64,000 bases of DNA, from positions 3,046 to 67,045 of the IMG/VR virus record IMGVR_UViG_3300027985_000557; one strand, 5' to 3'. This DNA comes from a virus. Numbering within the stretch: the stretch's first letter is position 1; every line of letters begins with the position of its first letter. The position numbers were made by a program, and so were the translations under genes. Of the stretch, positions 2,500-37,932 are shown piece by piece. Under the pieces are notes generated by a model that was given only the letters and a program-made list of their open reading frames with translations, made no database searches and was not told the origin of the DNA.

Positions 2500-4026
2500 A
2501 TGAGTCTGAGTAGCAACCCGCGTTTGCAGAAGGTAGTAGGCCATGAAAAGATCATTATCACCGGCCTCATCGTGTCGGACACGTTCTGCCAGCAGATTGT
2601 GCCGATACTCGACTTCAACATGTTCGAACAGACGTGGATGCGCGCCCTTGTTGTGAAGTGCGTGGCATACTACGAAGAGTACCACGCCTCCCCGAAGCAA
2701 AGTGTCATCTCGCTGTTTGAAGTCCTGCAAGATGAACTGAGCGAAACAGAAGCGGACCTTATCGCTACGTTCCTTGAGATGCTGTCCACGGACTACGCCA
2801 AGATTGAGGCATCGTTCAATGAACAGTTCTACATCGACGAAGCGGACATGTTCGTCAAGAAGAAGTCTTTGGAGGCGCATATCAGCCGCATCCAAAGTAT
2901 GATCGTCATGGGCAAAACGGAAGATGCCTACGCTCTGGCGAACAACTTTAAGCCTCATGCCCTCAACGGGCACACGAACGGCTTCTGGCGGTTGCGTGAG
3001 GACACCAGCTATGTGAAGATAACACACGCGGACGAGGAAACCAGCGACAGCCGCATCGTACTGGAGTACCCCGGGGCCGTGGGTCGTTTGATCGGCCCTT
3101 GTCGGCGTGGATGGCTGGGCGCTTTCCTGGCCCCCATGAAACGTGGCAAATCCAACTTTCTCATGGAATCAGCGGTCCTGGGCGTGCTGAGGGGGCGCAA
3201 GGTATTCGTCGCCCTGCATGAGATGAAAGAGGATGAATGGTTCGACCGCCTGCTGCTGAATATCAGCGGCGGCGTCTACGGCGACAACACGGCCCTGAAC
3301 ATGCCTGTGTTCGACTGCCTGTCCAACCGCGAGGGCACGTGCATCAAGACCTTCCGCATAAACAAGGAGCCCTACGGCAAAGGGAGCAACCCCCGGTACA
3401 TGGCATGCAATGTCTGTGAACGGGTCAAGGATGGCGGGCACAAGCCCTGTGTGTCCTTTCCGCTCACGGAGTTTCCCCGGCTGAAAACGACGGATGCTAG
3501 ACGCATAACCCAAAGTTTCGGGGCCAGTGCCGGTGGCGACATCATACTTAAGAAGTATGACGCCAACACCGCCAACAGCAAAACGCTCTACCGAGATTGG
3601 CAGTACCTCGCAGATTCTGGCGACGTGTGTGACATCATAATTTCTGACTACGCGGACATCCAAGGCCCGGAAGATAAAGGGCAGGTTGATTCTATCCAGC
3701 GCATCGACGCTACGTGGCTCGGACTGAAGTGGTTGGCGGACACCACGAATGCACTTACACTCACGGCCACGCAAGGCAAACTCAAATCCTTGACTGCTGA
3801 CGACATCGGGCAGGACGACGTGTCCGGGTACATCGGCAAGGCGGCCCATGTTGACTTCATGGTGGGCCTGTCACAAACCAAGGAAGAGAAGTCGCAGGGC
3901 ATTATGCGCCTCAGCAACCTATATCACCGATTTGCGTCCTGTAACGACAACACATGTTGTTCAGTACTCCAGCGCCTTGACTGCGGAAAGTACATTCTTG
4001 ACAGTAGGATGGGAAAGGTGGCCTAA
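2500..4026 (+). CDS. dnaB: Replicative SF4 (DnaB/gp41-like) helicase
   Basis: Walker A APMKRGKS, HEM motif 1a, IISDYAD Walker B, LTATQ, VDFMVGL; Cys-rich insertion. Confidence 0.85.
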   Translation: MSLSSNPRLQKVVGHEKIIITGLIVSDTFCQQIVPILDFNMFEQTWMRALVVKCVAYYEEYHASPKQSVISLFEVLQDELSETEADLIATFLEMLSTDYAKIEASFNEQFYIDEADMFVKKKSLEAHISRIQSMIVMGKTEDAYALANNFKPHALNGHTNGFWRLREDTSYVKITHADEETSDSRIVLEYPGAVGRLIGPCRRGWLGAFLAPMKRGKSNFLMESAVLGVLRGRKVFVALHEMKEDEWFDRLLLNISGGVYGDNTALNMPVFDCLSNREGTCIKTFRINKEPYGKGSNPRYMACNVCERVKDGGHKPCVSFPLTEFPRLKTTDARRITQSFGASAGGDIILKKYDANTANSKTLYRDWQYLADSGDVCDIIISDYADIQGPEDKGQVDSIQRIDATWLGLKWLADTTNALTLTATQGKLKSLTADDIGQDDVSGYIGKAAHVDFMVGLSQTKEEKSQGIMRLSNLYHRFASCNDNTCCSVLQRLDCGKYILDSRMGKVA

Positions 4027-4066
4027 AAATCTGGCAACTTTTTGCATAAATCGTCATGGTACTCCC

Positions 4067-4095
4067 TTGCTTTTGGGCATGCCCCGGGGTATTAT
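4067..4095 (+). promoter_or_regulatory. Putative sigma70-type promoter
   Basis: TTGCTT, 17-nt spacer, TATTAT in the intergenic gap. Confidence 0.55.
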
Positions 4096-4168
4096 GACTT
4101 TGACACTAGCAACACGGGGCGGAAGGGCCGCCCATAACTTCCAACCAACCCCACAGCGGGAGGATACC

Positions 4169-5008
4169 ATGGAATACGCCGCCATCAAATCGGCCGTCGA
4201 AAAGCTGAACGCCTCGCTCGAAAACAAGATCAAGACCGTGGCCGTCAAGGCCGACGACGTGAAGTCCAACTTCTCCAAGGCCATCGGCGACCTGGGCCTG
4301 GAAGCCACCCTGGTTCTCGATCCCGACATCATCCGCGCCTTCGTCCACGTGGTCGGCGCGCTGCCCGATGCCGACTACGCGGGCCTGGACGAAAAGATCC
4401 GCACCGTGTACGACGGCATCCCGGACGAGTACTTCGCGGCCCCGGCCAGCGCCGAGGGCGAGGGCGAGCGCACCGAGGGCGCTTCCGAAGGCGACGGCAC
4501 CAAGGCCCCGGAGGACCCCAAGGCTCCGGCCGCGCCCAAGGCCCCCAAGGAGCCCAAGGCCCCCAAGAAGCCCGGTGACAAGGGCTACAAGTCCGAGTGC
4601 GCCGACTTTGGCAAGAACTGCGACGACGCCGCCCAGCTCTGCCGGTCCTGCAAGGAAAGCCGCAACGACGAATACACCGTCTGCGCCGAGAAGACCGCTG
4701 CCAAGAAGGCCAAGAAAGCCCCGTCCGCCCCGGTGCGCGAGAAGAACGCCCTCGGTCACGTCATCGGCTCCATGTCCGCCGACATCGACGAAATGTTCCT
4801 CGCCGGCCCCTGCTACGCCGACGACGTCATCAAGGTGCTCATGGAAAAGCACCCCACCAAGGACGCCGCGAAGGCCAAGGAAAAGCTGAAGAGCCACATT
4901 TCCTGGCTGATCAACCGCGAAGGCCACAAGGTCGTGCAGACCCCCGAAGGCGAAGGCGACGCCAAGCGCGTCAAGATCGTCTTCACCGCCAAGGCCCCGG
5001 CTGCCTAG
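4169..5008 (+). CDS. Probably highly expressed Lys/Ala/Pro-rich protein with Cys4 motif, possible DNA-binding protein
   Basis: GGAGG RBS before ATG 4169; strongly C/G-ending codons like the capsid gene; PKAPK repeats; C-x2-FG...CRSC...C; own promoter and terminator. Confidence 0.7.
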   Translation: MEYAAIKSAVEKLNASLENKIKTVAVKADDVKSNFSKAIGDLGLEATLVLDPDIIRAFVHVVGALPDADYAGLDEKIRTVYDGIPDEYFAAPASAEGEGERTEGASEGDGTKAPEDPKAPAAPKAPKEPKAPKKPGDKGYKSECADFGKNCDDAAQLCRSCKESRNDEYTVCAEKTAAKKAKKAPSAPVREKNALGHVIGSMSADIDEMFLAGPCYADDVIKVLMEKHPTKDAAKAKEKLKSHISWLINREGHKVVQTPEGEGDAKRVKIVFTAKAPAA

Positions 5009-5040
5009 CTCACCCGCATCGGGTGGATGAGTTAGGTTTA

Positions 5041-5075
5041 GGCCCTGCCCCATGTTCCAGGGGCAGGGCCTTTTC
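5041..5075 (+). terminator. Intrinsic terminator
   Basis: GGCCCTGCCCC / GGGGCAGGGCC stem followed by TTTT. Confidence 0.75.
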
Positions 5076-5092
5076 AATCCAAGGAGGAAAGC

Positions 5093-5854
5093 ATGATCAG
5101 CGTCAAGTCTAAGGATATGGCAACCTTCCTCAAACGCGTCTACCTCGGGGGCGTCATTGAGGACTGCGTACTTCAAACGACCCCCGAAGGCATGTGTGTT
5201 CAGGCCCTCGACCTGTCCAACACCCTGCTCCTGTCCGTCGCGGCCCCTTTCGAGGCGACCCTCAATGCTGGTAACCTGGGCATCAGTCTGCTCGACTGGC
5301 TTATCAAGGCCCTTGGCTCATTCGGCGACGGCCAGATCGAAATGGGCATCGAAGGTAACCGCCTCATCATGCGCGGGGCCGGCAACAGCCTGAAGTACCT
5401 GCTCTCCAGTGCCGAGGCCGTCCCGACCATGCCTGAAGACCCGGCCGCCCTTGCCACCGTCAAGGATGCCCTGGTCTATTCCGTCAAGCTGGACGACCTG
5501 AACAAAGGCAACCTGACCACGAACATCAGCTTGTTCAAGAAACCCACCGTTACGGTAAACATCAACGCGAACAACGGCAAGGGCACCTGCTCCGTCGTCT
5601 GCGGCGCGGAAACCGAGAACCAGTTCACCGTCCAGTTCGGCCGCGTGACCGTCGCTGAGGGAGCGGAGATTATGCCGCTGTCTTTTGAGGTCAATGCAGC
5701 CCACGTCAAAGCCTGTCTGGAAGCCACGTCCAGCGGCGAAGGAACCCCGCTCATGATGATGGCCGCGAACCCCAAGTACCCGGTCATCATCTGCCAGGGC
5801 ATGGACCTCTGGGGATTTCTCCCTGCCGTCGCCCGTCCGAGCGGAGGTGCCTAA
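5093..5854 (+). CDS. Sliding clamp (gp45/PCNA-like)
   Basis: 253 aa, alternating beta/alpha clamp-like pattern (VQALDLSNTLLLSV), directly upstream of the clamp loader. Confidence 0.7.
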   Translation: MISVKSKDMATFLKRVYLGGVIEDCVLQTTPEGMCVQALDLSNTLLLSVAAPFEATLNAGNLGISLLDWLIKALGSFGDGQIEMGIEGNRLIMRGAGNSLKYLLSSAEAVPTMPEDPAALATVKDALVYSVKLDDLNKGNLTTNISLFKKPTVTVNINANNGKGTCSVVCGAETENQFTVQFGRVTVAEGAEIMPLSFEVNAAHVKACLEATSSGEGTPLMMMAANPKYPVIICQGMDLWGFLPAVARPSGGA

Positions 5855-6792
5855 TGTCCATCGAATCCTTCATCTGGTACGAGAAGTATCGCCCGACCAA
5901 CCTCGCCGACATGGTCATGCGGGAGCCCACCCGCGCGGCAATGGAATCCTTCATTACCCAAGACGAGATTCCACACCTGCTGCTGCACGGCCCGGCGGGC
6001 TCCGGCAAGACCACGGTAGCCAAGATCCTGTACGAAACCATTCCGTGTGCGGTTTTGGAGTTAAACGCCTCTAGCGGCGACCGTGGCGTGGAAATCATGA
6101 AGACCAAGGTGAAGCAGTTCGCCGCGTCGGCCCCCATGCCCGGCAAGGACCTGAAGATAGTCTTCCTTGACGAAGCGGACGGCCTGACCCTGGATGCCCA
6201 GAAGGCTCTGCGCAATACCATCGAGGCCTACCAATCCACGTGCCGCTTCTTGTTCACGTGTAACCACTTCGACAAGATGCATGATGCCATTATCAGCCGC
6301 TGCATGTGTTTTGAGTTCAGCCAGTTTCCTCTGGCCGACATGAAGAAGCACGCCTGCGGCATTCTGCGGAAGGAGGGCGTGACGTTTGACCGGGCGGCCG
6401 TGGGCCAACTGGTCGAGCGTTTCTACCCGGACTTCCGTACCATCCTCAACTCCATGCACCTGGGCTCCTTGTCCGGCACGTTTAATGCGGCGTCCATTGC
6501 CGCCCTGAATATTGACCCGGACACGGTCCTCAACTTCCTGCTTGATGGCAAAGTCGGCGAGCTGCGTCGGTATTGGGCCGGGCTGTCCGACTTCACCTTC
6601 ATTTACAAAATCCTGTTCGACAAACTGGTGCCCCTCATTGCCCAGCAAAGCGGCACGGATGCCGCTCGGGTGGTTGTCGTTCTGGCCGAGTACCTGGGGC
6701 GTGACTCTACCATTCCCGACCGTGAACTCAATTTCACGGCCTGCTGCTGCGCCTTGATGGATATCCTCGGCGCGCCGCACGACTTTGCGTAG
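5854..6792 (+). CDS. Clamp loader AAA+ subunit (RFC small/T4 gp44-like)
   Basis: WYEKYRP, GPAGSGKTT, ELNAS, LDEAD, SRC motifs. Confidence 0.93.
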   Translation: MSIESFIWYEKYRPTNLADMVMREPTRAAMESFITQDEIPHLLLHGPAGSGKTTVAKILYETIPCAVLELNASSGDRGVEIMKTKVKQFAASAPMPGKDLKIVFLDEADGLTLDAQKALRNTIEAYQSTCRFLFTCNHFDKMHDAIISRCMCFEFSQFPLADMKKHACGILRKEGVTFDRAAVGQLVERFYPDFRTILNSMHLGSLSGTFNAASIAALNIDPDTVLNFLLDGKVGELRRYWAGLSDFTFIYKILFDKLVPLIAQQSGTDAARVVVVLAEYLGRDSTIPDRELNFTACCCALMDILGAPHDFA

Positions 6793-7744: not shown

Positions 7745-8299
7745 ATGGGTATCCTCGGCGCTATTGGCGGAACCGAATCGTCACGGGCTGATCGGTTCAA
7801 CAAACAGGCGGAAGGTCTGTCCAAAGAAGCAACCCGCGCCCTCGAAGTCTCCATGCTTAAACCCGAACCCATGATCGAGCCTGCTTGTCCCGCGCCGACT
7901 ACCCGTGGCGTCGTGGATACCAAGGTGGCGTTCTACATCCCTCCCAAACGCTACTGGCGCATCTTTCAAAAGTTCTTCAAAGTGTCCCGCATGGGCGAGC
8001 GCCAGAACGCTAACGGCATTGCCCGTGGCGAGAACTCCGTGCGTGACATCCGCATTTTCCTGGCCCTGCTGGATGGACTGGTCAGCGGCAAGCTGAAGTT
8101 CAATGCGGAGGCCATGACTATTGAGGCGGCCTTGTCTCCGAGACAGGTGAAGCTTCTCGAAGATTTCGAGGTTACTCTTCGTCAGCATATCGAGGCCGAA
8201 GAACAAGATGCCCCGGGTGTCGCAGCAAGCCTTGTCGATGAAGTGCGCACCTTGCTTGACGAGGCGTTTGGCTACCCGGCTGAAGATCGGAATAAGTAA
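7745..8299 (+). CDS. Hypothetical protein
   Basis: AGGAG RBS, in-operon ORF of 184 aa. Confidence 0.65.
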   Translation: MGILGAIGGTESSRADRFNKQAEGLSKEATRALEVSMLKPEPMIEPACPAPTTRGVVDTKVAFYIPPKRYWRIFQKFFKVSRMGERQNANGIARGENSVRDIRIFLALLDGLVSGKLKFNAEAMTIEAALSPRQVKLLEDFEVTLRQHIEAEEQDAPGVAASLVDEVRTLLDEAFGYPAEDRNK

Positions 8300-8308
8300 G
8301 GAGCTGAC

Positions 8309-9733
8309 ATGGCTATCGAACACAGGGAGACAGAGGACATAAGCGAAGAAGCCCTCCGGTGGGTCGTGGAGAACAAGGGTATCAGGGGCGAGGATATTGG
8401 CAAGGGGTATCAGTCCCCGCGCATTTCCTCGGAGATACCCGACTGTTCCATGCCCCTGAGCTTTGACGATAAGTCCTTCTGCGCGCTCGGCTGCCTGTAC
8501 TGCTTCAGCTACATGCAGAAGTGTATCAATCCGTCCCGAAGTGGTCTGGGCCTTCAGACGGTGGATACCCAAAAGATGATCCAGGCTATGACCGGCAAAG
8601 GGGCCAAGGGCCACCACCGCCTTCTCTATGAGCACTTCTACAAACGCCGGTTTCTGCTCCATTGGGGCGGGCTGGCCGACCCGTTCTGCAACTTCGAGCG
8701 GACAGCCGGCTCTACCCGTGAACTGCTGACAGCCCTCGGGGACATGGACTACCCCACCCTGTTCAGCTTCAAGGGCGGTACCGTGTTCCGCAAGGAGTAC
8801 CGCCAGATATTCGAACGGTTCTCCGGGCAGCGTAACTTCGCCTTCCAGGTAAGCATCATCACGGCGGACGACGCCCTTGCCAAAGAAGTAGAGGTCGGTG
8901 TACCATCACCCACGGCCCGGCTGAACGCCTTGAAGATGCTGTCCGAGATGGGGTACTGGACTATTCTGCGTCTGCGTCCCTTCATGATCGGCATCACGGA
9001 CCCGACCCTTGACGAACTGCTGGAGCGTGCCCGGGACGTGGGTATTCGCGGCGTGTCCACAGAGTTCTTTGCCATCGACAACCGCTGTACGGCTGGGGCC
9101 AAAATGCGGTTCAAATGGCTGGCAAAGTACATGGGCGTGGAGAACCTGCACGAATATTACCAAGCCCTCTCCCCCGACCGGGGCACCTACCTGCGTCTGA
9201 ACCGCCACGTCAAGGAGCGGTTCATCAAGAAGATCTATAAGTTCTGCTGCGAGAACAATCTCACCCTTGGCGTGTCCGACCCTGACTTCAAAGAACTCTG
9301 CACGTCTGGCTCTTGCTGCGGCATGCCGGACGATTTCCCCGACAACCGAGCGCTGGAGAACTGGACGCGTGACCAGCTCACGTTTCACGTGAAACGCGCC
9401 CGTCAGATCTACCACCAAAGCGGCCAGCTTGTCGAACTCAAATTCGATGAGGTCTACAACGAGCAAACGTCGCCGTACCTCGTCGAACCCGGCCTTGCCA
9501 ACGATAACTTCGACGTCATCGGCCGCAACTATGCTGAACGCGCCAACCTGACGCAGAAGCTTCTGCTCCAGGAAAAATGGAACAATCTGCGGTCACCGAT
9601 CAACCCGCGCAACTACCTGCACAACAAACTTGTTCCGATCGGACTTGATGACAAGGGCAACTACATCATGCGATACAACCCCCTGGAGTATGAGGAGAGG
9701 TGGAAAAAGGAAGGACTTGATCTAACGCGCTAG
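8309..9733 (+). CDS. Radical SAM protein, spore photoproduct lyase-like
   Basis: CALGCLYC (CxxxCxxC), GGLADPF, E.GVPSPTARL and LRLRP motifs, later GSCCG. Confidence 0.85.
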   Translation: MAIEHRETEDISEEALRWVVENKGIRGEDIGKGYQSPRISSEIPDCSMPLSFDDKSFCALGCLYCFSYMQKCINPSRSGLGLQTVDTQKMIQAMTGKGAKGHHRLLYEHFYKRRFLLHWGGLADPFCNFERTAGSTRELLTALGDMDYPTLFSFKGGTVFRKEYRQIFERFSGQRNFAFQVSIITADDALAKEVEVGVPSPTARLNALKMLSEMGYWTILRLRPFMIGITDPTLDELLERARDVGIRGVSTEFFAIDNRCTAGAKMRFKWLAKYMGVENLHEYYQALSPDRGTYLRLNRHVKERFIKKIYKFCCENNLTLGVSDPDFKELCTSGSCCGMPDDFPDNRALENWTRDQLTFHVKRARQIYHQSGQLVELKFDEVYNEQTSPYLVEPGLANDNFDVIGRNYAERANLTQKLLLQEKWNNLRSPINPRNYLHNKLVPIGLDDKGNYIMRYNPLEYEERWKKEGLDLTR

Positions 9734-9742
9734 GGGGTCATC

Positions 9743-10141
9743 ATGGACGGTGAAGTCGTTATCGGCGGCGTCTACAGGCACTACAAGAACAAACTGAATT
9801 ACCTAGTAATCGGTACATCGTGGTATGTTAGTGACGCCAAGGAAGGAGTTCTTGTCCATTATCTTCCGCTGTACGAATGCCATAAAAAATCATTCGCCCG
9901 CGATCTTCCAGAGTTCAAGGCGGTCGTCAAGGGTGAAGATGGTATCATGCAACCCCGGTTTCTGCTCGTAGACCAAGAAGGCCGGTGCGACATGCTTACC
10001 ATACTCACCGATGTACTTTACAGCGCCCAAATGGCTAAGATCGCCATGTTGAGCTTTCTGTCGCGGTATAATGACCATGCGGGCCTGGACCTTGACGGCC
10101 TGAAACTGGCGACGGATCACTTGAAAAGGAGCATACCGTGA
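9743..10141 (+). CDS. DUF1653-like protein
   Basis: GGVYRHYKNK.Y.VIG ... ARDLPEF ... PRF signature. Confidence 0.7.
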   Translation: MDGEVVIGGVYRHYKNKLNYLVIGTSWYVSDAKEGVLVHYLPLYECHKKSFARDLPEFKAVVKGEDGIMQPRFLLVDQEGRCDMLTILTDVLYSAQMAKIAMLSFLSRYNDHAGLDLDGLKLATDHLKRSIP

Positions 10142-10992
10142 GTACCTTTCACGTCATTGTTACTTCCGCCGGACGGGCCGACCGTTTAGTCACTCCGGCG
10201 AACCTTGGTTCATGGACGCAAGGATACACAACCTTCGTTGTTCCGCACAACCAATACGATGCTTACGCCCAGGCCCTGAGCACCACTGAAATCCAGGTGG
10301 TAGCGGCCCCTGAAGACATTCTGCTCATGTCGCCCAAACGGCAATGGGCCATCGAACAGTGCAAGGGCATCGACTACGTCTGCATTCTGGACGACGATCT
10401 TGACTTCTTTGTCCGCACGCCGGAAATGAAGCTGGTCAAGGCGACTCCCGATCAGGTGGACCAGATGTTCCTTGAGATGCACGACACCCTGGACAGCGGC
10501 ATCCATTTCACGGGTATCAGCTCGCGCTTCGGGAACAACCAAGTCACCGAAGAGTTCAAGGATGTTGGTCGCGTGTCCCGGTGCTGGGCCTTCAACCGCA
10601 AGACCTACATGGACCTCGGCGTCAATATTGCGCCCTTCCCCGAATACTGTATCGACGACTTCCATATCATTCTGTCCTTCCTCGAGGCCGGGCATCCCAA
10701 CCGGGTGTTCTACAAGTACAGCCAGGATGACAAGGGCAGCAACGCGGCCGGCGGTTGCTCGGCCTACCGCAACTTCGACATCCAGCGGCAGTCGGCCGAA
10801 TGGTTGGCGAAAAAGCACGCCGGGTTTGTCGAGGTGGTCGAGAAGCGCACCAAGCATTCCTGGCCTGGAATGGCCAAGGGAGCCGATGGTAGCAACGTCC
10901 GGCATGACGTCCGCATCCACTGGCAAAAGGCCTACCAGAAGGGCCGGGCTGGCGGCGGCATGTCCGCATTTTTGAAGTCGAGACAGAGCTAA
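10138..10992 (+). CDS. GT-A glycosyltransferase, TET-associated (TAGT/GREB1-like) DNA glycosyltransferase type
   Basis: SAGRA, KRQW, ILDDDL (DxD), IDDFH, NAAGGCS.YR motifs. Confidence 0.75.
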   Translation: MSTFHVIVTSAGRADRLVTPANLGSWTQGYTTFVVPHNQYDAYAQALSTTEIQVVAAPEDILLMSPKRQWAIEQCKGIDYVCILDDDLDFFVRTPEMKLVKATPDQVDQMFLEMHDTLDSGIHFTGISSRFGNNQVTEEFKDVGRVSRCWAFNRKTYMDLGVNIAPFPEYCIDDFHIILSFLEAGHPNRVFYKYSQDDKGSNAAGGCSAYRNFDIQRQSAEWLAKKHAGFVEVVEKRTKHSWPGMAKGADGSNVRHDVRIHWQKAYQKGRAGGGMSAFLKSRQS

Positions 10993-11074: not shown

Positions 11075-11551
11075 ATGGCCATCACGCCGAAGTACCAGAC
11101 TTCCGATGGAAAACTGTTCGATACACCTGAGCAGGCAGCAGAACACGAAGAGCAAAGCGCCGACATAAAGAACGAAGTTAAGGCCGTCATGGCGAAGATA
11201 GAAACCTTGACGGGGGTGCGCAGTGCGGGTGACAGGTTCGTGGTAGCGGCCACCATTTTGTTGATGCTTACAAATCGTGAACTGTTTGCTGCACATTTTA
11301 CCAAAAAGAAGATGAGCGCTAAATTGGGCGTTGTGAACAAATGCGAGAACTGCATGCACTGTCCGACGTGGAATCTTGTCACGGAACGGACATTAAAGAC
11401 GGTAGAACGCGGCCTGTGTCGTAAACCTGTGAGTAAAGGAATCATACGCGAACTCGGTCTTCCGCCTGGGACAAGTGTCCAGATGCCGTGGATTTATCGT
11501 AATGCCCAAAAGATGAATTGTCCCGGCTTCATGGAGTTTTTCGAGGCGTAG
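11075..11551 (+). CDS. Hypothetical protein with C-terminal Cys cluster
   Basis: YQTSDGKLFDT N-terminus common in phages; CENCMHC...C...C. Confidence 0.65.
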   Translation: MAITPKYQTSDGKLFDTPEQAAEHEEQSADIKNEVKAVMAKIETLTGVRSAGDRFVVAATILLMLTNRELFAAHFTKKKMSAKLGVVNKCENCMHCPTWNLVTERTLKTVERGLCRKPVSKGIIRELGLPPGTSVQMPWIYRNAQKMNCPGFMEFFEA

Positions 11552-11553
11552 CC

Positions 11554-11952
11554 ATGCGGACGAACGTCGAAAAACTCCATGAGATGTGGGAACTTCGCGA
11601 GCGTGTCGGCACTGCCTTCATGCCACGAAACAGCGGCAAGACTCTGCTGCGCGTTCACGAACTGGCGGCCGGTATCTGTCTTGGCGAACATGACTTGTTT
11701 ATCGTCAGCCTGACCGCGTACCATGACCTCATGTACCTCATACCCATGATCTTTTCCGTGTTCGCCGAGTACGGCATAGTACCGGATCAGCCAAGTTCGC
11801 ACATAAGCATTGAACGGCTAATCGTGCATTATCAGGGACGCCGTATCACCATTCGGTTCTATGCAGTGCGCGATAGCCGGTATTCCTGCCGCGATGAGTT
11901 CACCCGAGGTCTGTCCGACTTCGGCTATGTCCCCATGGGGCATTGGGATTAA
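11554..11952 (+). CDS. Hypothetical protein with P-loop-like motif
   Basis: MPRNSGKT; GAGG RBS before ATG 11554. Confidence 0.55.
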   Translation: MRTNVEKLHEMWELRERVGTAFMPRNSGKTLLRVHELAAGICLGEHDLFIVSLTAYHDLMYLIPMIFSVFAEYGIVPDQPSSHISIERLIVHYQGRRITIRFYAVRDSRYSCRDEFTRGLSDFGYVPMGHWD

Positions 11953-11954
11953 GC

Positions 11955-12455
11955 ATGAAAGGAATCGTACCCTCTAAGCATGTTCGTCCACACATGCTCA
12001 CCCTGGACATCGGGCAGGCTGTCTACGACTGCACTGATGAAATCGAAGACCTGCGCAAAACCCGCGCCCGTCTCATTTACATCATGCGCTCTATCATGCG
12101 GATGATAGGCCCCAAGGACGTTTATGGGCACTGGATCTTCGCCAATACCGGAGGACAGCGTACCTACCAGCGCACCCTCTCCCAGGTCATGGCCGAAGTC
12201 TTTGCCGTGAACAAAAAGACGGCGGATGGCCTTCAGTGGATCATCCTGCTGCACGGCATGGCTGAGGACTGTGAAGACCTTGCGAAAGAAAATGGACAAT
12301 TCGCCCTGGCCCACAGATGGAAACTGGTGTACCGTCTTATGGGCTGGGTCCACGCCCTGTTTGAACCTCAGTACCCGGACGACGCGAGCGCCGAATGGGC
12401 CGCCGCCATCATGCTGTACGACCGAATTACCAAGAAAATTGGAATGCAGAAGTAG
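11955..12455 (+). CDS. Hypothetical protein
   Basis: In-operon ORF abutting its neighbours. Confidence 0.6.
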   Translation: MKGIVPSKHVRPHMLTLDIGQAVYDCTDEIEDLRKTRARLIYIMRSIMRMIGPKDVYGHWIFANTGGQRTYQRTLSQVMAEVFAVNKKTADGLQWIILLHGMAEDCEDLAKENGQFALAHRWKLVYRLMGWVHALFEPQYPDDASAEWAAAIMLYDRITKKIGMQK

Positions 12456-12463
12456 GGGGACGC

Positions 12464-15136
12464 ATGGATTTCTTCAGACGGGTGTTGGCACCCGCATGTT
12501 CTAAGTGCGGCCTTTCCGGCCGATGCACAACCCATCAGATACCTGTTCGTGGGCAAGGGCGGCTGGGCGTTCTTTTTGTGGGCACGTCGCCGTCGCCGGA
12601 AGAAGATGCGGCCGGGACGCGCGGGGTAGGACCGGAGCATGCCCTGATCCAAGAAATGTTCAGTGGGTCGGACATTGACCTGGAGCGGGACTGCTGGCGC
12701 GTGGATGCCGTGAACTGTGTGTCCTACAACCGCAAAGGCGAGCGCCGCCAACCCACGGACGCCGAGATTGACGCCTGCCGGCCTGTATTACAGAAAGTAT
12801 TACGCGATCTGAAGCCCAAAACCGTCATTCTCATGGGCAACGCGGCCCTGAAGTCATTCTATGGGGCGGAAGGGTCCGGGCATCAGTACCTCAACGTCGA
12901 AAGGTACATGAACCAACGCATTCCGGACACTAAGAACGGAGCGTGGGTCACTGCTATCTATGCCCCGGAGCACATGGTCGCCAATGACTTCAACCAGAAC
13001 CTGCGCATGGTCTATGACTTCAGTTACGAAGCCGTCTACGACTGCATAGATTTTGCCCCGCCCCAGGTGGTGGACTACGACTCCATGGTGCAGGTGCTTA
13101 CGGAGTTCAAGGACGTTACCAGCGTCTTGCAAGAAGTCATCGCCAAAGTGCCGTCACGGTTCACACACGATTACGAAGCGAACTGCATCAAACCGCATTG
13201 GCCCGACGCCGTCTTGTATTCCATGTCCTTCAAAACGCCCCTTTCTCGCTTCGCCTATAGTTTTCCGCTGCATTGGCCGGGGCATTGGTCGGACGCGCAA
13301 GCACGGATCATTGACGAACACGTACACCGCATCTTACAGCACCGCCGGATAGGCAAGGTGGCCCACAACATGTCGATGGAGGATGGTTGGGCCGCCAAGC
13401 ACCTGGGCGCATTGGTAGCCCCGTGGCTCAGCGACACCATGGTGGCTCAGCATATCATCTGTACCGAGCGCAATACCAAGGGCCTCAAAGATCAGGCGTG
13501 GTTCCGCTATGGTGTCCACGGGTACGATGACCCGGTGGACGTCTACCTCAAGTCGAAGGGAACCTACAACAACATTCACCGCGCCCCGAAGCCCCTCATT
13601 CTGCACTACGGCGGCTTGGACAGCATATTCACGGACAGACTGTTCGTTGACCAGCGGGAATACATTGAGGCACAAGGACGCGATGATCCCCGATACCTCG
13701 CCGTCGATGACCTGTTTAAGCGCGGGGCCGTGGTCCTGAACCGTATTTCCCAACGAGGCTTCCGCACAGACGGGGCATTCTACAAGGAGCAGGCTACCAA
13801 CCTTGAAGCCGAAATAGCCAAGCTGTCCGAGCGCCTGCTCAACTGCCGTGAGGCCAAACTGTTCACGCGCGAAACGGGCCGGCAACTACGCCTTGATTCT
13901 TCTGATGACCTGCGCTACCTGCTGGTCAACGTCATGGGTTACAAGATCGATAAGCGCACCGGGGCCGACAAGGAGGCCGTGGACAAGGAGATCTTACAGG
14001 AGATTGGGTCGCGGTTCGCTAAGAATATGCTGGCCTACCGTAAGGCGGGCAAGATTCTTAGCACCTACGTCAGTCCGTTCATAAAGCTGGCCGTGGACGA
14101 ACGCATTCACCCTAGCTTCAACCTCCATGTGGCCCGGTCTGGCCGGTCCAGTTCATCCGAACCCAACTTCCAGAACCTCCCCAAGCGCGACCCCCTGGCG
14201 AAGCAGTATGTACGCAAGGGCATCATACCGGACGAAGGCTTTCACTTCTGTGAAGCGGACTACAGTTCTCTGGAAGTCCGCATCTTTGCGTGTCACTGCC
14301 TGGACCCGGTACTCATCGACTATGTGAACGACCCGACCACGGACATGCACCGGGACCAGTGCGTCGATCTCTTTATGCTGGACGGCCAGGAGTACGTGTC
14401 CAAGGCCATGCGGACGGACATCAAAGCCGGTTGGGTCTTCGCCGAGTTCTACGGATCATATTACAAGAGCTGCGCCCGCAAGATGTGGGATGTAATGATC
14501 CTACCCAAGAAGATATGTCTGCATGATCCTGTAGCTGGTGGCAACGGTATTACCCTCATGCAGCATCTCGACAACAAGGGCATCAGGAACCACGCGGACT
14601 TCGAGGCCTATCTAGAAGACTACGAAAAGAACAAGTTCTGGTCGCGGTTCGCGGTGACTAAGGAATACCAGATGAACGCCTTTAAGGAGTACCAGCGTAA
14701 GGGCTACATCGAAACCAAGTGGGGCTTCCGGCGGGGCGGCTTCCTGTCCAAGAACAAAATCATCAATACTCCGACACAGGGCACCGGCTTCCAGAACCTC
14801 TTGTGGTCCCTTGTCGAGATGGACAAAATCCGGCTGAAAGAGAAGTGGCGGTCTTTCTTTGTTGGCCAGATTCATGACTCCATTAACAGCAACATTCACC
14901 CCGACGAATTGCAGTATGTGCTCGATATTCACCACTACATCATGTGCGAGCGCATCCGTGAATTGCACGACTGGATCATAGTCCCCCTTGAAATCGAAGT
15001 CGCTATCGCCCCGGTCAACGAACCGTGGTACTTCACCAAAGACTACATCAAGATTCAGACGGGTGAGTGGGTTCAGAAAGACCTGTACCGCCAGGATGAA
15101 ATCGGTAACTGGTTTCCCAAGGAAGTAGCCACGTAG
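12464..15136 (+). CDS. polA: Family A DNA polymerase with N-terminal family-4 UDG-like domain (SPO1-type) and 3'-5' exonuclease
   Basis: CSKC/VG.SP..EED/EIDAC UDG-like domain; HDYE, AHN...ED, YGGLD exo motifs; SGRSSSSEPNFQN, ADYSSLEVR (A), K...F...YG (B), QIHDS (C). Confidence 0.95.
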   Translation: MDFFRRVLAPACSKCGLSGRCTTHQIPVRGQGRLGVLFVGTSPSPEEDAAGTRGVGPEHALIQEMFSGSDIDLERDCWRVDAVNCVSYNRKGERRQPTDAEIDACRPVLQKVLRDLKPKTVILMGNAALKSFYGAEGSGHQYLNVERYMNQRIPDTKNGAWVTAIYAPEHMVANDFNQNLRMVYDFSYEAVYDCIDFAPPQVVDYDSMVQVLTEFKDVTSVLQEVIAKVPSRFTHDYEANCIKPHWPDAVLYSMSFKTPLSRFAYSFPLHWPGHWSDAQARIIDEHVHRILQHRRIGKVAHNMSMEDGWAAKHLGALVAPWLSDTMVAQHIICTERNTKGLKDQAWFRYGVHGYDDPVDVYLKSKGTYNNIHRAPKPLILHYGGLDSIFTDRLFVDQREYIEAQGRDDPRYLAVDDLFKRGAVVLNRISQRGFRTDGAFYKEQATNLEAEIAKLSERLLNCREAKLFTRETGRQLRLDSSDDLRYLLVNVMGYKIDKRTGADKEAVDKEILQEIGSRFAKNMLAYRKAGKILSTYVSPFIKLAVDERIHPSFNLHVARSGRSSSSEPNFQNLPKRDPLAKQYVRKGIIPDEGFHFCEADYSSLEVRIFACHCLDPVLIDYVNDPTTDMHRDQCVDLFMLDGQEYVSKAMRTDIKAGWVFAEFYGSYYKSCARKMWDVMILPKKICLHDPVAGGNGITLMQHLDNKGIRNHADFEAYLEDYEKNKFWSRFAVTKEYQMNAFKEYQRKGYIETKWGFRRGGFLSKNKIINTPTQGTGFQNLLWSLVEMDKIRLKEKWRSFFVGQIHDSINSNIHPDELQYVLDIHHYIMCERIRELHDWIIVPLEIEVAIAPVNEPWYFTKDYIKIQTGEWVQKDLYRQDEIGNWFPKEVAT

Positions 15137-15772: not shown

Positions 15773-15922
15773 ATGCCACAAAATTCATTGGGCATTCTTG
15801 CGCTAGTCGGCGGGGCCGGTGCTATGGTATTGCTTTGGCTTTACCTTGCCGCCCGGCTCGTGTCTTACGGAATAACCAAAAGCTACTTCCAAGCCAGGAA
15901 GGAGGAACAACATGGCAATTGA
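15773..15922 (+). CDS. Small membrane protein, 49 aa, below the ORF-track cutoff
   Basis: Translated by hand: MPQNSLGILALVGGAGAMVLLWLYLAARLVSYGITKSYFQARKEEQHGN; fills the gap. Confidence 0.55.
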   Translation: MPQNSLGILALVGGAGAMVLLWLYLAARLVSYGITKSYFQARKEEQHGN

Positions 15923-17054
15923 CCGCAGCGCGATTCGCAACAACCTTGCCGGCCGTACCGCTCAGTCCTACGCCAACAAGGACAATGAAGGTGGCTTCCG
16001 TATCTACGTGCGCCCCACCAACGGCCGCCCGGTCTTCCGCAAATTCGCCGAAGGCCAGATTATGTTCGACATCATCCCGTTTGCTATCACGGCTAACTTC
16101 ATGCTGGACCCGGATGCGCCTGGCAAGCCCAAGTACCTCGCCGGCCAGTGGCGCTACTTCCTGGAAGTCTTCAGCCACATGAACATCGGCCCCAACAACT
16201 GGAACGTCGCCTGCCCGAACAAGAACTTCGGCCTGCCCTGCCCTATCTGCGAGGAGTTCTCGCGGCTCCAGGCGGCCGGCGCGGATTGGGACACCGTCCT
16301 GAAGCCGCTGAAGCTCAACCGCCGCTGCGTCTACAACATCTGGATGCACGACGTTCCAGCTCTCAAGGAAGAAGCCAAGGGCGTGCAGCTCCTGGAAATC
16401 GCCCACTTCTCACTGGAAGCCAATATCCTGTCCCTGGCCCGCGACCCCCGTACCGGCGCGGTCACCGAAATCGCCGACCCGGACAACGGCCGCACGATCT
16501 ACTTCGAGCGTAAGGGAACGAAAGCGGACAACACCAAGTACACGGGCTTCCAGCTTCTGCCGCGTGACATCGCCATTCCCGACGAAATCCTGGAGCAGGC
16601 CGTTCCTCTGAACGAAGCCATCGAGATTCTGGACTACGAGGCGCTGGACGCCCTGTTCCATGGCGGAGCTGCCCCGGCCCCGGCCGGTGACGAACCCGGC
16701 ACCGTGCGCGCCCCGCGTCGTGGCCCCTTGTCCGCCCCGGCCGCCGCTGCCCCCCAGAAAACGCCCCTGGCGGCCCCGTCCGCTCCCGCCGCGACCCCGC
16801 CCCGACGTCCGGCTCCCCAGGCCGCCTCTGAGCCCGAAACGGTTCCGCCTGCCGCGACCCCGCCGGCTGCTCCTGCCCGTCGTCCGGCCCCGGCGGCTGC
16901 TGCCACCGCCGCTGCCCCGGAACCGGCCCCCGCTGCCGGTGGCGACCAGTGCCCCCACGGTATGATCTTCGGCCAGGACACCGACAAGATCGAGGCCTGC
17001 AACGGTTGCGATCTGTACGACGCCTGCGGCGCGGCCTTCGACGCGAACAACTAG
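15912..17054 (+). CDS. Single-stranded DNA-binding protein (T4 gp32-like)
   Basis: H...CP...PCPICE zinc site, DPDNGRTI...RKG...TKY, Ala/Pro linker, C-terminal Cys4 module. Confidence 0.8.
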   Translation: MAIDRSAIRNNLAGRTAQSYANKDNEGGFRIYVRPTNGRPVFRKFAEGQIMFDIIPFAITANFMLDPDAPGKPKYLAGQWRYFLEVFSHMNIGPNNWNVACPNKNFGLPCPICEEFSRLQAAGADWDTVLKPLKLNRRCVYNIWMHDVPALKEEAKGVQLLEIAHFSLEANILSLARDPRTGAVTEIADPDNGRTIYFERKGTKADNTKYTGFQLLPRDIAIPDEILEQAVPLNEAIEILDYEALDALFHGGAAPAPAGDEPGTVRAPRRGPLSAPAAAAPQKTPLAAPSAPAATPPRRPAPQAASEPETVPPAATPPAAPARRPAPAAAATAAAPEPAPAAGGDQCPHGMIFGQDTDKIEACNGCDLYDACGAAFDANN

Positions 17055-17092: not shown

Positions 17093-17105
17093 CATGGAGG
17101 AAAGC

Positions 17106-18332
17106 ATGGCCGACACTCCTGTTCGCAGACGTCCCGCCCCTGCCCCTGCGGCCACCCCAGCGCCTGAGCCTGTCCGACGCCGGCCCGCGCCCGTAACTGC
17201 CCCACAAAGCGCGATCGATAAAGTGGCGGAGCAGGTGGCCGAATCCGCCCTGTCCGAGCCCCAAAAGCGTGAGCCGGTCAACACCGACATCATGATTTCT
17301 ACCGGGTCCACCCTGCTCGACCTCGCCATTTCCGGCGGCATCATCCGGGGCGGCGGCATACCGGGCGGCATCCTTGTCGAGATGTATGGCCCGTCCGGTA
17401 CTGGCAAATCGGCAGTCATGTGCGAGATACTCGGCAACGTGCAACGAAAAGGCGGTCTGACCTCCACACAAGACCCCGAAGGTCGCCTCAATGCCGGGTA
17501 CGCCAAGGTCTACGGCATGAACATCGACCCCAAGTCGTATGATCGTCCTGACACCGTTGTTCAGGCGTTCACCAACACCCGGAAGTTCATTGCCAGCCAT
17601 TTTCGCAAAAAGAAGACTGATCCGATAAACGCCATCGGCACAGATAGCCTTGCCGCTCTCTCATCTGAACTGGAGATGAGCAAGGACGGCGATAAGATGG
17701 GCATGAAGAAGGCCAAAGACCTGAACCAGGAAATGCGCCTTACCTGCCGAGACATCGCAAACTCAGGCAACCTCGTCATCTGCACAAACCAGGAACGTGG
17801 TGAAGGCTACGACGCCAAAACGCCCGGCGGTCAAGCCGTGGGGTATTACGCCTCGGTTCGCCTTCGTCTTACTCCCGACCACGCCAATGATGTGAAGAAG
17901 GACGTCAAGGTCAAGGAAGTTCTGGGCATTGTGGACGAGGACGACGAGGACGATCCGAATACCAGAACGGAAGCCAAAAAAGGTCGTAAGGGGAAAAGCG
18001 AAAAGGGACAGGTCGAGAAAGTACTCGGCATTCGTACGAATATCGCCGTGGTCAAAAGCTCGGTGGATGACCCCTACCGCATGGCCTACGTCTACATCGT
18101 CTTTGGCTACGGCATCGACGACGTGCGCGCCAATCTCCAGTGGATGAAGGATATGCTTCAGACTACCACCTACGTGACCCCGAGCGGTAAGAAATTCCAG
18201 GGTATCGCCCAGGCCATCGACTCGGTAGAAAAGTACGGCGAAGAAGCCGCCTTGCGGGAGCAGGTCATCGACTTGTGGGAGGCCATCGAGAACGCCCTGA
18301 AGGTCAAGCGTAAGCCGAAGGTTAGGATATAG
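17106..18332 (+). CDS. recA: RecA/UvsX-like recombinase
   Basis: ISTGSTLLDLAI.GG, EMYGPSGTGKS, DSLAAL, NQ.R, TPGGQA..YYASVRL. Confidence 0.92.
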   Translation: MADTPVRRRPAPAPAATPAPEPVRRRPAPVTAPQSAIDKVAEQVAESALSEPQKREPVNTDIMISTGSTLLDLAISGGIIRGGGIPGGILVEMYGPSGTGKSAVMCEILGNVQRKGGLTSTQDPEGRLNAGYAKVYGMNIDPKSYDRPDTVVQAFTNTRKFIASHFRKKKTDPINAIGTDSLAALSSELEMSKDGDKMGMKKAKDLNQEMRLTCRDIANSGNLVICTNQERGEGYDAKTPGGQAVGYYASVRLRLTPDHANDVKKDVKVKEVLGIVDEDDEDDPNTRTEAKKGRKGKSEKGQVEKVLGIRTNIAVVKSSVDDPYRMAYVYIVFGYGIDDVRANLQWMKDMLQTTTYVTPSGKKFQGIAQAIDSVEKYGEEAALREQVIDLWEAIENALKVKRKPKVRI

Positions 18333-19162: not shown

Positions 19163-20059
19163 ATGATCACAAACAGGAAATTCGTTGTGGTGCTCGACTG
19201 TAACGGCATCATGCACATGCTGAAGCATGGCATCAAACGCGACATGTCCCACGGGGGATATGAAACGAGCATCATATACGGGTTCCTGGGACAGATCCGG
19301 TACTATGCGGCTCGTTTCAACACGAGCCGCTTTGTGTTCGCCTGGGACTCGCGTAAATCTCTGCGAAAAGAACGATACCCGTGGTACAAAGAGAAGGGCA
19401 AGGAAGAGACGCCCACCGACCAAGAGATTGAGTTTGAAGCATCTGTCTACCGGCAGTTCAACCAGATTCGCCGCTACGTGGTGCCGACCATCGGGTTCAA
19501 AAATACCTTCCACGTCGCCGGGTACGAGGCTGACGACCTTATCGCCAACATACTCATTCAAAACCCGGACAATCGGTTCATACTGGTGTCTCGGGACGCG
19601 GACATGTACCAACTCTTGCGGTACTGTCTGATCTGTAATCCGGCAACCAAAGAGCTTTACAGCACGGCCGAACTGCAAAACGAATATGGTGTCACACCCG
19701 AGCAGTGGGTGGACATCAAGAAACTCGGCGGCTGCACGTCTGACAAGGTGCCCGGGATACCCGGCGTCGGCGAGGGTGTAGCGGGCCAGTGGATCCGAGG
19801 CGAGCTAAAGCCGAAAGGAAAACGCTATCAAGCTATAGCGGCCGACCTTGCCAACGAAAACAGCGTGGCGGCTCAAAATGATTGGTTGGTGCGCTTACCT
19901 CTACCGGGGACACCGGATATTCGCATTTCCTTTGATGACGAAGTACTCAGCCTGTACGGCTTCGAGGACGTGTGCTCGCGCTATGGCTTCGCATCGCTTC
20001 TGGAAAAGACCACCTTTGAAGTATGGAAAGCGCAACTGAATTTGCGGGAGGAGGACTAG
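19163..20059 (+). CDS. 5'-3' exonuclease (FEN/T4 RNase H-like)
   Basis: VLD.N, FAWD, YK, YEADDLIA, SRDADMYQL, G..SDKVPGIPGVG. Confidence 0.92.
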   Translation: MITNRKFVVVLDCNGIMHMLKHGIKRDMSHGGYETSIIYGFLGQIRYYAARFNTSRFVFAWDSRKSLRKERYPWYKEKGKEETPTDQEIEFEASVYRQFNQIRRYVVPTIGFKNTFHVAGYEADDLIANILIQNPDNRFILVSRDADMYQLLRYCLICNPATKELYSTAELQNEYGVTPEQWVDIKKLGGCTSDKVPGIPGVGEGVAGQWIRGELKPKGKRYQAIAADLANENSVAAQNDWLVRLPLPGTPDIRISFDDEVLSLYGFEDVCSRYGFASLLEKTTFEVWKAQLNLREED

Positions 20060-22426: not shown

Positions 22427-22774
22427 GTGCCCAAGGTCAAAGCCTATCCCATCGACATCACGACAACCGTTCTTGTCGAACGCACCGACGAAAACGGCAA
22501 TTGGGTTAACCCCCTTGTGATGACCGTCATGCCCAACAACGATGGTGGCATGACGCGTATGTTCTCCCTCCTGTTCTCTGAAGCCAAAGACCCCTGGTGC
22601 GTCCCGGCTTTGCTTCCCCATGTAATCATGGGCGAATACGAAATTACCGACGAACTGGCGCAGCAGTATCGCGAAATGGTCAAGAAGATCAAGCACAAAA
22701 TCCAGATGGAAACGTCCGGCATCGTCGCCCCGTCCCAGGCGGCCTTGCGGGCCATTCAGAAGGGGAATGCCTAA
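22427..22774 (+). CDS. Hypothetical protein
   Basis: AAGGAG RBS, in-operon. Confidence 0.6.
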   Translation: MPKVKAYPIDITTTVLVERTDENGNWVNPLVMTVMPNNDGGMTRMFSLLFSEAKDPWCVPALLPHVIMGEYEITDELAQQYREMVKKIKHKIQMETSGIVAPSQAALRAIQKGNA

Positions 22775-35082: not shown

Positions 35083-35083
35083 G

Positions 35084-35470: not shown

Positions 35471-35483
35471 ACGGCCCCTCCAA

Positions 35484-36235: not shown

Positions 36236-36253
36236 TACTATTCTCCTTGCTGG

Positions 36254-37507: not shown

Positions 37508-37508
37508 G

Positions 37509-37865: not shown

Positions 37866-37932
37866 CGTGTTTTCCTCCTATTCAGAATTGCCCATATGCA
37901 CTTTTGCGTAAAAGCACAACCTAAAATGACAA

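Follow-up and report, generated by a model that had tools for sequence, protein, structure and literature searches.

How could a virus prepare its DNA for glycosylation when the usual enzymes that make the sugar acceptor are missing? The question is raised by a short group of genes in the linear, 67,045-bp viral record IMGVR_UViG_3300027985_000557, whose bases 3046-67045 form the 64,000-nucleotide stretch analysed here ('the window'), leaving 3,045 bp outside. As the original prediction had it, three open reading frames (ORFs) lie together between a clamp loader and a DNA polymerase, all on the + strand. They encode a radical S-adenosylmethionine (SAM) protein, here termed rSAM, with a fold like that of spore photoproduct lyase (SPL), a DUF1653-domain protein and a TAGT-type glycosyltransferase:

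8309-9733, + strand: rSAM, 474 amino acids (aa), with CALGCLYC (CxxxCxxC) at residues 58-65 and an SPL-like fold
9743-10141, + strand: DUF1653-domain protein, 132 aa, with the domain (PF07866) at residues 9-73
10138-10992, + strand: TAGT glycosyltransferase (PF20691), 284 aa, with a GTG start and a 4-nt overlap with the preceding stop

Published accounts (PMC8989533, PMC5889632) describe, in the sections concerned, two starts for hydroxymethyl-pyrimidine modification of DNA in phages and kinetoplastids, one by ThyA-like enzymes acting on free nucleotides and the other by O2-dependent TET/JBP enzymes acting on DNA. The evidence presented here tips somewhat towards a different answer for this locus, in which DNA acquires a 5-hydroxymethylpyrimidine through the rSAM, probably 5-hydroxymethyluracil (5-hmU) from thymine and without O2, and the TAGT glycosylates it. 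The two proteins would constitute a two-step DNA hypermodification module within the replication operon, with the rSAM acting after replication on the phage DNA to add a hydroxyl-bearing substituent at C5 of a pyrimidine.

The radical SAM protein and its genetic partners

The rSAM was compared across a set consisting of the window and 46 further viral loci, whose ORFs were clustered (L013/14/15/18, L026/27, L029/30, L037/38 and L046/53 are near-duplicates within it). Upstream of its gene lie, nearly always, the genes for clamp and clamp loader and some small accessory genes, and downstream of it, again nearly always, the DNA polymerase gene; in the loci compared the rSAM gene opens a variable cassette. 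A TAGT gene is present in 21 of the 47 rSAM records, and in one more (G047) that was found from the TAGT side, usually a few genes downstream of the rSAM. The two are also joined in single proteins. When 20 rSAM homologues with lengths of 615 aa or more were scanned with Pfam, seven had a TAGT domain above the cut-off (three rSAM-TAGT, two TAGT-rSAM, one kinase-like-rSAM-TAGT and one intein-containing rSAM-TAGT) and a further one had a sub-threshold TAGT match of 24.5 bits; one is a fusion to an FkbM-type methyltransferase, six contain inteins or LAGLIDADG endonucleases, and six have no extra recognised domain. One fusion protein has a Ploopntkinase3 match of 22.7 bits, which is under the cut-off. 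Because rSAM and TAGT are fused in both orders, these proteins provide strong evidence that the two are functionally coupled and share a substrate. The association of this rSAM clade with TAGT, on which the original prediction leaned, is thus borne out by the records, by the fusions and by 12 of the 80 TAGT loci considered in the next section.

The genes that follow the rSAM differ between loci, and the cassettes include these types:

TAGT alone, as in the window
TAGT with a SPASM-type rSAM (a SPASM rSAM is found in 12 loci)
P-loop kinase with ADDT (PF18724), in 6 loci, some of which add an FkbM methyltransferase, a GATase or an amidoligase
B12-binding rSAM with an unknown 450-aa protein
DUF2284 protein with another P-loop kinase

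The ADDT assignment is clear in the L007 ORF (61.3 bits against PF18724, cut-off 26.2), and no ADDT is found in the window; the cassette kinase matches AAA_18 and Zeta_toxin weakly. The richest cassette found, at about 10000-18000 in L026/L027 (record G019, 95 kb, 100% complete), has in a row the rSAM, a B12-binding rSAM, two SPASM rSAMs and two TAGT paralogues, and points to a modification more elaborate than that of the window.

The relationships among the rSAMs bear on what they might have in common. In a quick IQ-TREE analysis of 36 rows, after removal of six identical rows and of four loci with no ORF in the 400-520-aa range, the cassette types are interspersed. The TAGT label changes at least seven times and shows no clustering, 99 of 500 shuffles being as low; L016, with TAGT, is sister to L025, with ADDT and kinase, at 100 in the Shimodaira-Hasegawa-like approximate likelihood ratio test (SH-aLRT), and L032, with TAGT, is sister to L007, with ADDT and kinase, at SH-aLRT 90. 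Since close rSAMs serve chemically different downstream enzymes, a role in supplying a shared upstream step would fit better than one in substrate-specific tailoring.

A control of only indicative value comes from 80 loci with a related clamp loader, taken from among the matches listed, a sample that missed known rSAM contigs: 28 of the 29 with at least 6 kb downstream lack the rSAM and every cassette gene, and the sole rSAM carrier, L139, also has TAGT and a SPASM rSAM. A search with the single loader protein gave no matches.

The likeness of the rSAM to SPL, claimed from the sequence, stands for the fold and falls for the sequence itself. An AlphaFold 2 (AF2) model, with a predicted local distance difference test score (pLDDT) of 86.6 and a predicted template modelling score (pTM) of 0.90, has SPL entries as its top Foldseek matches in the PDB, with modest template modelling (TM) scores of 0.56-0.58 on the target. 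The match to SPL 4k9r has an E-value of 6.4e-5 and a TM of 0.57 on the target over 330 columns, at 13-14% identity. The peptide maturases SkfB and SuiB, which are also rSAMs, are among the fold matches with similar E-values, and no RlmN/Cfr entry is among those listed. At the sequence level, an hmmsearch with a 32-sequence rSAM profile gave no SPL match at E<=1 among the PDB sequences and no true match to any chain, and no SPL model is among the NCBIfam matches of the window rSAM. The nearest NCBIfam models are PA0069 (56.8 bits, 1.8e-15; cut-off 360) and Rv2578c (42.7 bits, 3.4e-11; cut-off 430). The match to Pfam Radical_SAM PF04055 (21.6 bits, E 2.7e-4) is under the cut-off of 29.5, and a precomputed PF04055 assignment exists for many of the homologues. 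Membership of the rSAM superfamily is accepted because of the motif and the fold, the AF2 model matching many rSAM structures.

Of 83 full-length representatives, 93-95% retain the cluster motif, C58-x3-C62-x2-C65. Further cysteines conserved among these are C46 (86%) and C336/C337 (94% each), and C127 is not conserved, being Cys in 28%. Catalysis by SPL involves an H-donor cysteine and a tyrosine relay. Comparison with gp53 of phage M6 by hhalign gives a probability of 93.6%, an E-value of 2e-7 and 22% identity over 218 of about 475 columns, confined to the rSAM core, so the window protein is not a full-length orthologue of gp53.

The family is sizeable. A word-indexed search gave 507 homologous proteins at E<=1e-5, the best 120 of them full-length and 50-86% identical to the window rSAM, and an exhaustive profile search of 1.84 billion representatives gave 1,839 clusters (at 50% identity) at E<=1e-3, of which 778 reach E<=1e-10 and 197 reach E<=1e-30. 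Homologues carry the Joint Genome Institute (JGI) label 'DNA repair photolyase'. By tblastn at 1e-5 there is no match in 50,697 deposited phage genome records, and 185,579 species genomes yield four matches, all in metagenome-assembled genomes of unrelated taxa, on three contigs of 3-4 kb and one of 63.7 kb. The idea that these four are true cellular homologues was rejected; they are likely to be viral fragments, and hence no host can be inferred from them. Because deposited phages lack the family and cellular genomes hold just these copies, it is treated as virus-restricted.

The gene for the rSAM is often found in pieces or enlarged (L007, L029, L030, L034, L035, L041, L043, L049 and L051). 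Inteins or LAGLIDADG homing endonucleases are recognised by Pfam in the rSAM proteins P0173, P0175, P0182, P0225 and P0228, and in L007 a weakly TnsA-like ORF (17.7 bits, under the cut-off) lies between two rSAM pieces. Such interruptions suggest that the target is highly conserved and important to the virus.

The identification of the partner as a TAGT-type glycosyltransferase is well founded. It scores 65.2 bits (E 1e-17, cut-off 27.5) against PF20691 over profile positions 1-205 of 205, and its PHROGs match is phrog_842, 'beta-glucosyl-HMC-alpha-glucosyltransferase' (1.4e-37). Its AF2 model (pLDDT 92.6) has as best PDB folds nucleotide-sugar enzymes of the glycosyltransferase A (GT-A) type, such as TarP/TarS and GnT-I. 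The GT-A fold is accompanied by an acidic DxD metal/nucleotide-sugar motif (DDD, D85-D87), which is invariant in 19 aligned homologues together with R13 and G205-G206.

The intervening ORF is indeed DUF1653-like, with 29.2 bits against PF07866 (cut-off 23.5) over residues 9-73. It does not belong to the conserved part of the gene group: phmmer at E<=0.01 found no homologue in the 46 other rSAM loci, 80 TAGT loci or 80 loader loci. It was rejected as a member of the pathway, being unique to the window's genome among the loci searched, and judged by this distribution it is probably a passenger and not a core component.

The source of the sugar acceptor

Six-frame searches of the whole 67,045-bp record with hidden Markov models (HMMs) found no ThyA fold (PF00303, no match at E<=10), no Tet_JBP (PF12851) and no C5-methyltransferase (PF00145), and ThyX, a flavin-dependent thymidylate synthase, is the only gene of the thymidylate-synthase type in the record. 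The original prediction had noted the lack of a TET/JBP enzyme, a hydroxymethylase and a C5-methyltransferase, and the presence of ThyX, within the window, and the searches agree with it over the full length. The Tet_JBP model has power on such sequence, since two other viral contigs with TET/JBP beside TAGT are picked up by it, at 41.3 and 36.6 bits; it gave no match in control genomes. ThyX as a hidden hydroxymethylase partner was rejected, as it is present in only 9 of 48 rSAM records, and a cytosine route via 5-methylcytosine was rejected because a C5-methyltransferase is found in none of the 48. Tet_JBP is likewise found in none of 47 rSAM records.

The usual company of TAGT was examined with local HMMs in the best 80 of 185 loci whose relatives of the window gene were found in the viral collection with a TAGT profile. 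In 62 of the 80 there is a ThyA-like gene, separated from TAGT by 0-3,623 bp (median 196 bp), and the one in L079 is 47% identical to M6 gp58 over its full length. The 12 loci with an rSAM have no ThyA-like gene, so that none of the 80 has both. Six have neither; in two of these Tet_JBP lies beside TAGT, and in the other four TAGT is less than about 1 kb from the end of the contig. Whole-record Pfam searches of 50 TAGT records outside the rSAM set give a similar picture, with a ThyA fold in 46 (among those with a completeness of 90% or more, in 12 of 13) and an rSAM in one, which is ThyA-negative; no ThyA-positive record among the 46 carries the rSAM. The TAGT of the window has no TET/JBP or ThyA-like partner in its record, and the rSAM occupies that place.

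The same logic, replacement of one acceptor-making enzyme by another, has been applied to TET_JBP by Lee et al. (2021; PMC8989533), who argue in their treatment of thymidine-hypermodification clusters that TET_JBP takes the place of the dUMP hydroxymethylase in some of them. The ten rSAM records that are at least 90% complete provide a stricter sample for the rSAM. None has a ThyA fold, a Tet_JBP or a C5-methyltransferase; TAGT is present in G019, G021 and G035 and kinase with ADDT in G029 and G044.

Mechanism and alternative roles

SPL, an enzyme that works on DNA, forms a thymine-methyl (allylic) radical in the course of its reaction. An SPL-like active site would be suited to a flipped-out thymine and to the radical of its methyl group. 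In the proposed mechanism, the 5'-deoxyadenosyl radical would take a hydrogen atom from the thymine methyl, and the resulting allylic radical would undergo one-electron oxidation, perhaps via a cluster bound by C46 and C336/C337. Capture of the oxidised species by water would give 5-hmU, with SAM as the oxidant and no need for O2. The TAGT would then move a sugar from a nucleotide-sugar donor onto the new hydroxyl, giving a base-J-like glycosyl-hmU.

The choice of product follows from the enzymes that would use it. FkbM-type methyltransferases act on hydroxyl groups. Because glycosyltransferases and kinases need a hydroxyl, and the amino-acid:DNA transferases use, in the passages of PMC8989533 that deal with them, phosphorylated 5-hydroxymethyldeoxyuridine (5-hmdU), a 5-hydroxymethylpyrimidine would be the simplest common product of the rSAM. 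Thymine would be the only 5-methylpyrimidine available, since no C5-methyltransferase is present. What had been predicted, an rSAM that makes the sugar acceptor without O2, gains from the coupling and fusion to TAGT, from the absence of the usual makers and from the lack of any TAGT locus with both enzymes; from these we infer DNA as the substrate, thymine as the base, a hydroxymethyl product and a radical mechanism, with the roles of C46 and C336/C337 and the independence from O2 belonging to the same chain of reasoning.

Put more broadly, the virus-only rSAM clade may be an O2-independent DNA thymine hydroxylase, or an equivalent 5-hydroxymethylpyrimidine synthase, providing a third route to 5-hmU or 5-hydroxymethylcytosine (5-hmC) that feeds interchangeable modules for glycosyl, phospho-/aminoacyl and methyl transfer, with base-J-like glycosyl-hmU as the product in the window's virus. 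This wider proposal is put forward tentatively, as falling a little short of an even chance.

Several observations weigh against hydroxylation by the rSAM. The first concern the completeness of the record. CheckV puts its completeness at 58%, no head or packaging family was matched in PHROGs among the 10 large ORFs of the window's record that were scanned, and an rSAM 86% identical to that of the window sits on an 88.8-kb contig; for these reasons an acceptor-making gene could lie in the missing part of the genome. The second concern other rSAM records, of which 5 of 47 have ThyA-fold matches (E<=0.01), three of them above the cut-off. In the TAGT-positive G006 and G024 these are intact ThyA-like proteins of 271 and 257 aa, encoded outside the cassette at about 13 kb and about 8 kb, respectively, from TAGT; one of the two genes adjoins a dCMP-deaminase-like ORF, and the alignment of the G024 protein to M6 gp58 spans 80 residues only. 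G039 also has a ThyA-fold ORF. In G038 and G045 the rSAM is directly followed, ahead of a kinase, by a 470-aa protein that is divergent and matches ThyA weakly (20 bits, under the cut-off). A 470-aa protein of this description at 11332-12744 of L046 and L053, partial in its ThyA match and with 26% identity to M6 gp58 over 92 aa, lies directly between the rSAM and a P-loop kinase and could be a divergent hydroxymethylase alongside the rSAM; comparison of the L046 protein with PDB sequences gave nothing useful. The partners are not uniformly supportive either: TAGT was not seen in 26 of the 47 rSAM records, the DUF1653 gene is confined, among the loci searched, to the window's genome, ADDT has a weak likeness (E 0.004) to the M6 glycine:DNA transferase, and the cassette kinase has no BLASTP similarity (E 1.6) to gp54, the M6 5-hmdU kinase. 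Finally, no rSAM reported to hydroxylate DNA was found in the literature, and M6 gp53, the only characterised DNA-modifying relative, is a downstream isomerase and not an initiator.

The complementarity of rSAM and ThyA is also partly phylogenetic. Exclusivity in the 80 TAGT loci gives a Fisher p of 3e-10, a value that treats as independent loci that are not, and overstates the case because the TAGT clades are partner-specific. Clustering of TAGT at 90, 70 or 50% identity never brings ThyA-partnered and rSAM-partnered sequences together, and on a FastTree phylogeny of TAGT the partner label is clustered (none of 500 shuffles was as low), with only one or two switches forced by well-supported branches.

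Many of these points are shared by the alternative that survives best, in which the rSAM is a tailoring enzyme that acts after attachment, as gp53 does, perhaps rearranging or oxidising the sugar or amino acid that was added, with the acceptor coming from an unrecognised enzyme or from the missing ~40% of the genome. M6 gp53, as described in the relevant part of PMC8989533, is an SPL-like rSAM of 480 aa that works downstream in its pathway and is distantly homologous to the window protein; an incomplete record, the intact ThyA-like genes of G006 and G024 and the weakly ThyA-like neighbour of the rSAM in G038 and G045 would all be accommodated. However, rSAMs that are 40-60% identical serve a glycosyltransferase, a kinase with ADDT, and a methyltransferase, so that tailoring would require very different substrates. 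The near-complete genomes, with no ThyA fold or Tet_JBP in any of the ten, and the ThyA-positive TAGT records, with no rSAM in any of the 46, also speak against tailoring, and the likeness to gp53 is low and limited to the rSAM core. On this evidence a tailoring role is rather unlikely.

A variant of the hydroxymethylation reading, in which the base is C or U, is distinctly less probable again. Here the rSAM would add a one-carbon unit to C or U in DNA by an RlmN/Cfr-like methyl-cysteine mechanism, and hydrolytic release would give 5-hmC or 5-hmU. The layout of C46, 12 residues before the motif, and the C-terminal C336/C337, conserved in 86-94% of the 83 representatives, resembles that of the two mechanistic cysteines of RlmN, and a route of this kind would suit the lack of a C5-methyltransferase in all 48 records. 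The same cysteines could equally bind an auxiliary Fe-S cluster, and the best fold is that of SPL, with RlmN/Cfr missing from the fold matches listed. The partners too (ADDT, and TAGT from clades that otherwise have an M6-type ThyA-like gene) are familiar from the chemistry of 5-hmdU, as far as it is treated in PMC8989533.

It is quite improbable that the rSAM and glycosyltransferase modify a protein, peptide, small molecule or cell-surface polymer instead of DNA. Such a role could be read into the fold matches, since SkfB and SuiB are peptide maturases and the TAGT resembles generic GT-A enzymes, but it sits poorly with a cassette placed between clamp loader and DNA polymerase in most rSAM loci compared, with partners such as ADDT and nucleotide-type P-loop kinases, and with the adjacency of TAGT elsewhere to a gp58-type ThyA-like gene or to TET/JBP. 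An SPL-like DNA repair lyase that is functionally unrelated to TAGT is scarcely credible, for although SPL is the best structural match and JGI names the homologues accordingly, the rSAM is fused to TAGT, kinase and methyltransferase, has no sequence-level match to SPL in the PDB and constantly heads modification cassettes.

Hydroxylation of thymine by the rSAM, followed by glycosylation, would have several consequences if true. It would give phages a third way to hypermodify their DNA and would explain how viruses of anoxic habitats do so (the run label 'hydrothermal vent metagenome' was set aside as evidence of habitat, not being independent). It would also be a new type of rSAM reaction, in which a DNA base is hydroxylated at a C-H bond or receives a hydroxymethyl group, and could serve as a tool for introducing 5-hmU or 5-hmC into DNA independently of O2. 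The rSAM family marks a large group of uncultured viruses with probably unusual DNA, which bears on restriction, CRISPR targeting and sequencing, and the hypothesis is directly testable with two genes.

Surrounding genes and known systems

The clamp loader and PolA form the upstream and downstream borders of the slot that holds the cassette, and the genes around it form a replication module:

5854-6792, + strand: clamp-loader AAA+ ATPase (Pfam AAA 9.3e-15, DNA_pol3_delta2 6.9e-9; Gp44_lid 20.9 bits, not reaching the cut-off of 27)
7745-8299, + strand: small protein of cluster c5, directly 5' of the rSAM, with no Pfam family
11075-12455: three small ORFs, with no homologue in any locus examined
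12395-15136, + strand: PolA with an N-terminal UDG-like domain (DNA_pol_A 6.5e-45; UDG 2.8e-12, residues 55-201)
15912-17054: gp32-like protein, in the co-directional replication run
17094-18332: RecA/UvsX-like protein, in the same run
19163-20059: FEN, in the same run
20063-20863: RuvC, in the same run
22597-23577, + strand: ThyX (Pfam Thy1 3e-67; own-genome search 2.6e-69)
24761-26820: SbcC/SbcD-like genes, in the same run

Homologues of the clamp loader are found in 36 of the 47 rSAM loci, and of c5, at the same position, in 23. An electron-transfer or DNA-binding role for c5 as a partner of the rSAM was rejected, given a mean identity of 25% in a 22-sequence alignment, no Cys motif and no Pfam family; it is probably an accessory of the replication module and not an enzyme. 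The three small ORFs are not conserved parts of the system.

The UDG-like domain is fused to two unrelated polymerases, at the N-terminus of the window PolA and at the C-terminus of a PolIII-alpha in the rSAM-bearing relative L006 (12517-15846; UDG superfamily, residues 986-1090, 4e-10). Tail genes are present in the record, and a 1,840-aa tape measure (46355-51877, - strand; phrog_1533, 3.3e-54) implies a very long tail. Amid the tail-region genes, a 681-aa protein (55868-57913, - strand) has a second glycosyltransferase-like segment (phrog_2170, 1.4e-14, residues 190-315). A 309-aa protein with Response_reg (7.8e-16) and PAS_4 (3.1e-7) domains is encoded at 34207-35136 (- strand), inside a region (34001-38000) with a GC content of 0.46-0.51 compared with ~0.56 elsewhere; it is either a signalling gene unusual for a phage or part of an island acquired recently. 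At 3848-5176 the GC content is 0.62, long ORFs without any Pfam family overlap on both strands, and the + strand product has a low-complexity run rich in lysine, proline and alanine.

Cassettes for pyrimidine hypermodification are known; what would be new here is the first enzyme, with a predicted reaction new both to rSAM enzymology and to that of DNA modification. No proposal that an rSAM is the source of a hydroxymethyl acceptor was found in the literature, although Iyer et al. 2013 (NAR 41:7635), cited by Lee et al. (2021; PMC8989533) in the part concerned with computationally predicted DNA-modification systems, could hold a relevant remark. Where Lee et al. list rSAMs, they do so only among the tailoring enzymes.

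The nearest curated sequence models, PA0069 and Rv2578c (NF033668, NF038135; COG1533 'DNA repair photolyase'), describe cellular families of unknown function, and the window rSAM scores far under their cut-offs. NCBIfam has an intein-containing model for Rv2578c, and inteins also occur in the viral rSAM clade. SPL itself (SplB; PDB 4fhc/4k9r) is a radical SAM enzyme and the best fold match, with 330 of 340 residues aligned. Unlike SPL, with its 340 aa, the window rSAM has 474, with an extra C-terminal region and the conserved C46 and C336/C337, and its clade is virus-restricted and linked or fused to transferases instead of repair functions.

M6 gp53 is an SPL-like rSAM of similar length and a remote homologue, and it is encoded among the clustered thymidine-hypermodification genes of its phage. 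Its substrate is polymeric DNA, in which it isomerises N-alpha-glycinylthymine and so works on the group at C5 of a pyrimidine; its authors present it as the earliest case of an rSAM installing a modification in DNA (Lee et al. 2021; PMC8989533). However, gp53 works after a ThyA-type dUMP hydroxymethyltransferase, a kinase and a transferase, whereas the window clade heads its cassette and the hydroxymethylase is missing.

In the systems that pair a ThyA-fold dUMP hydroxymethyltransferase with TAGT (PhiJL001 gp24/gp22, or the M6 gp58 type), the glycosyltransferase family is the same and the genes are tightly adjacent. M6 gp58 is a gene of the thymidylate-synthase superfamily, and the phage modifications concerned derive from 5-hmdU, according to the relevant sections of PMC5889632 and PMC8989533; in the M6 phage group, the former adds, the 5-hmdU kinase co-associates with the dUMP hydroxymethyltransferase. 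These systems differ from that of the window in that the hydroxymethyl is made with folate on the free nucleotide before replication, and the window's record has no such gene.

The proposed logic is the one found for TET/JBP with TAGT or with the J-glucosyltransferase, in phage TET systems and the base J pathway, where a 5-hydroxymethylpyrimidine is made after replication and a glycosyltransferase follows. Two TAGT contigs carry Tet_JBP at the place where the rSAM sits in others. The enzymes are unrelated in fold and cofactors, TET/JBP using O2 and 2-oxoglutarate, where an rSAM would use SAM and an Fe-S cluster, and rSAMs are typically O2-sensitive.

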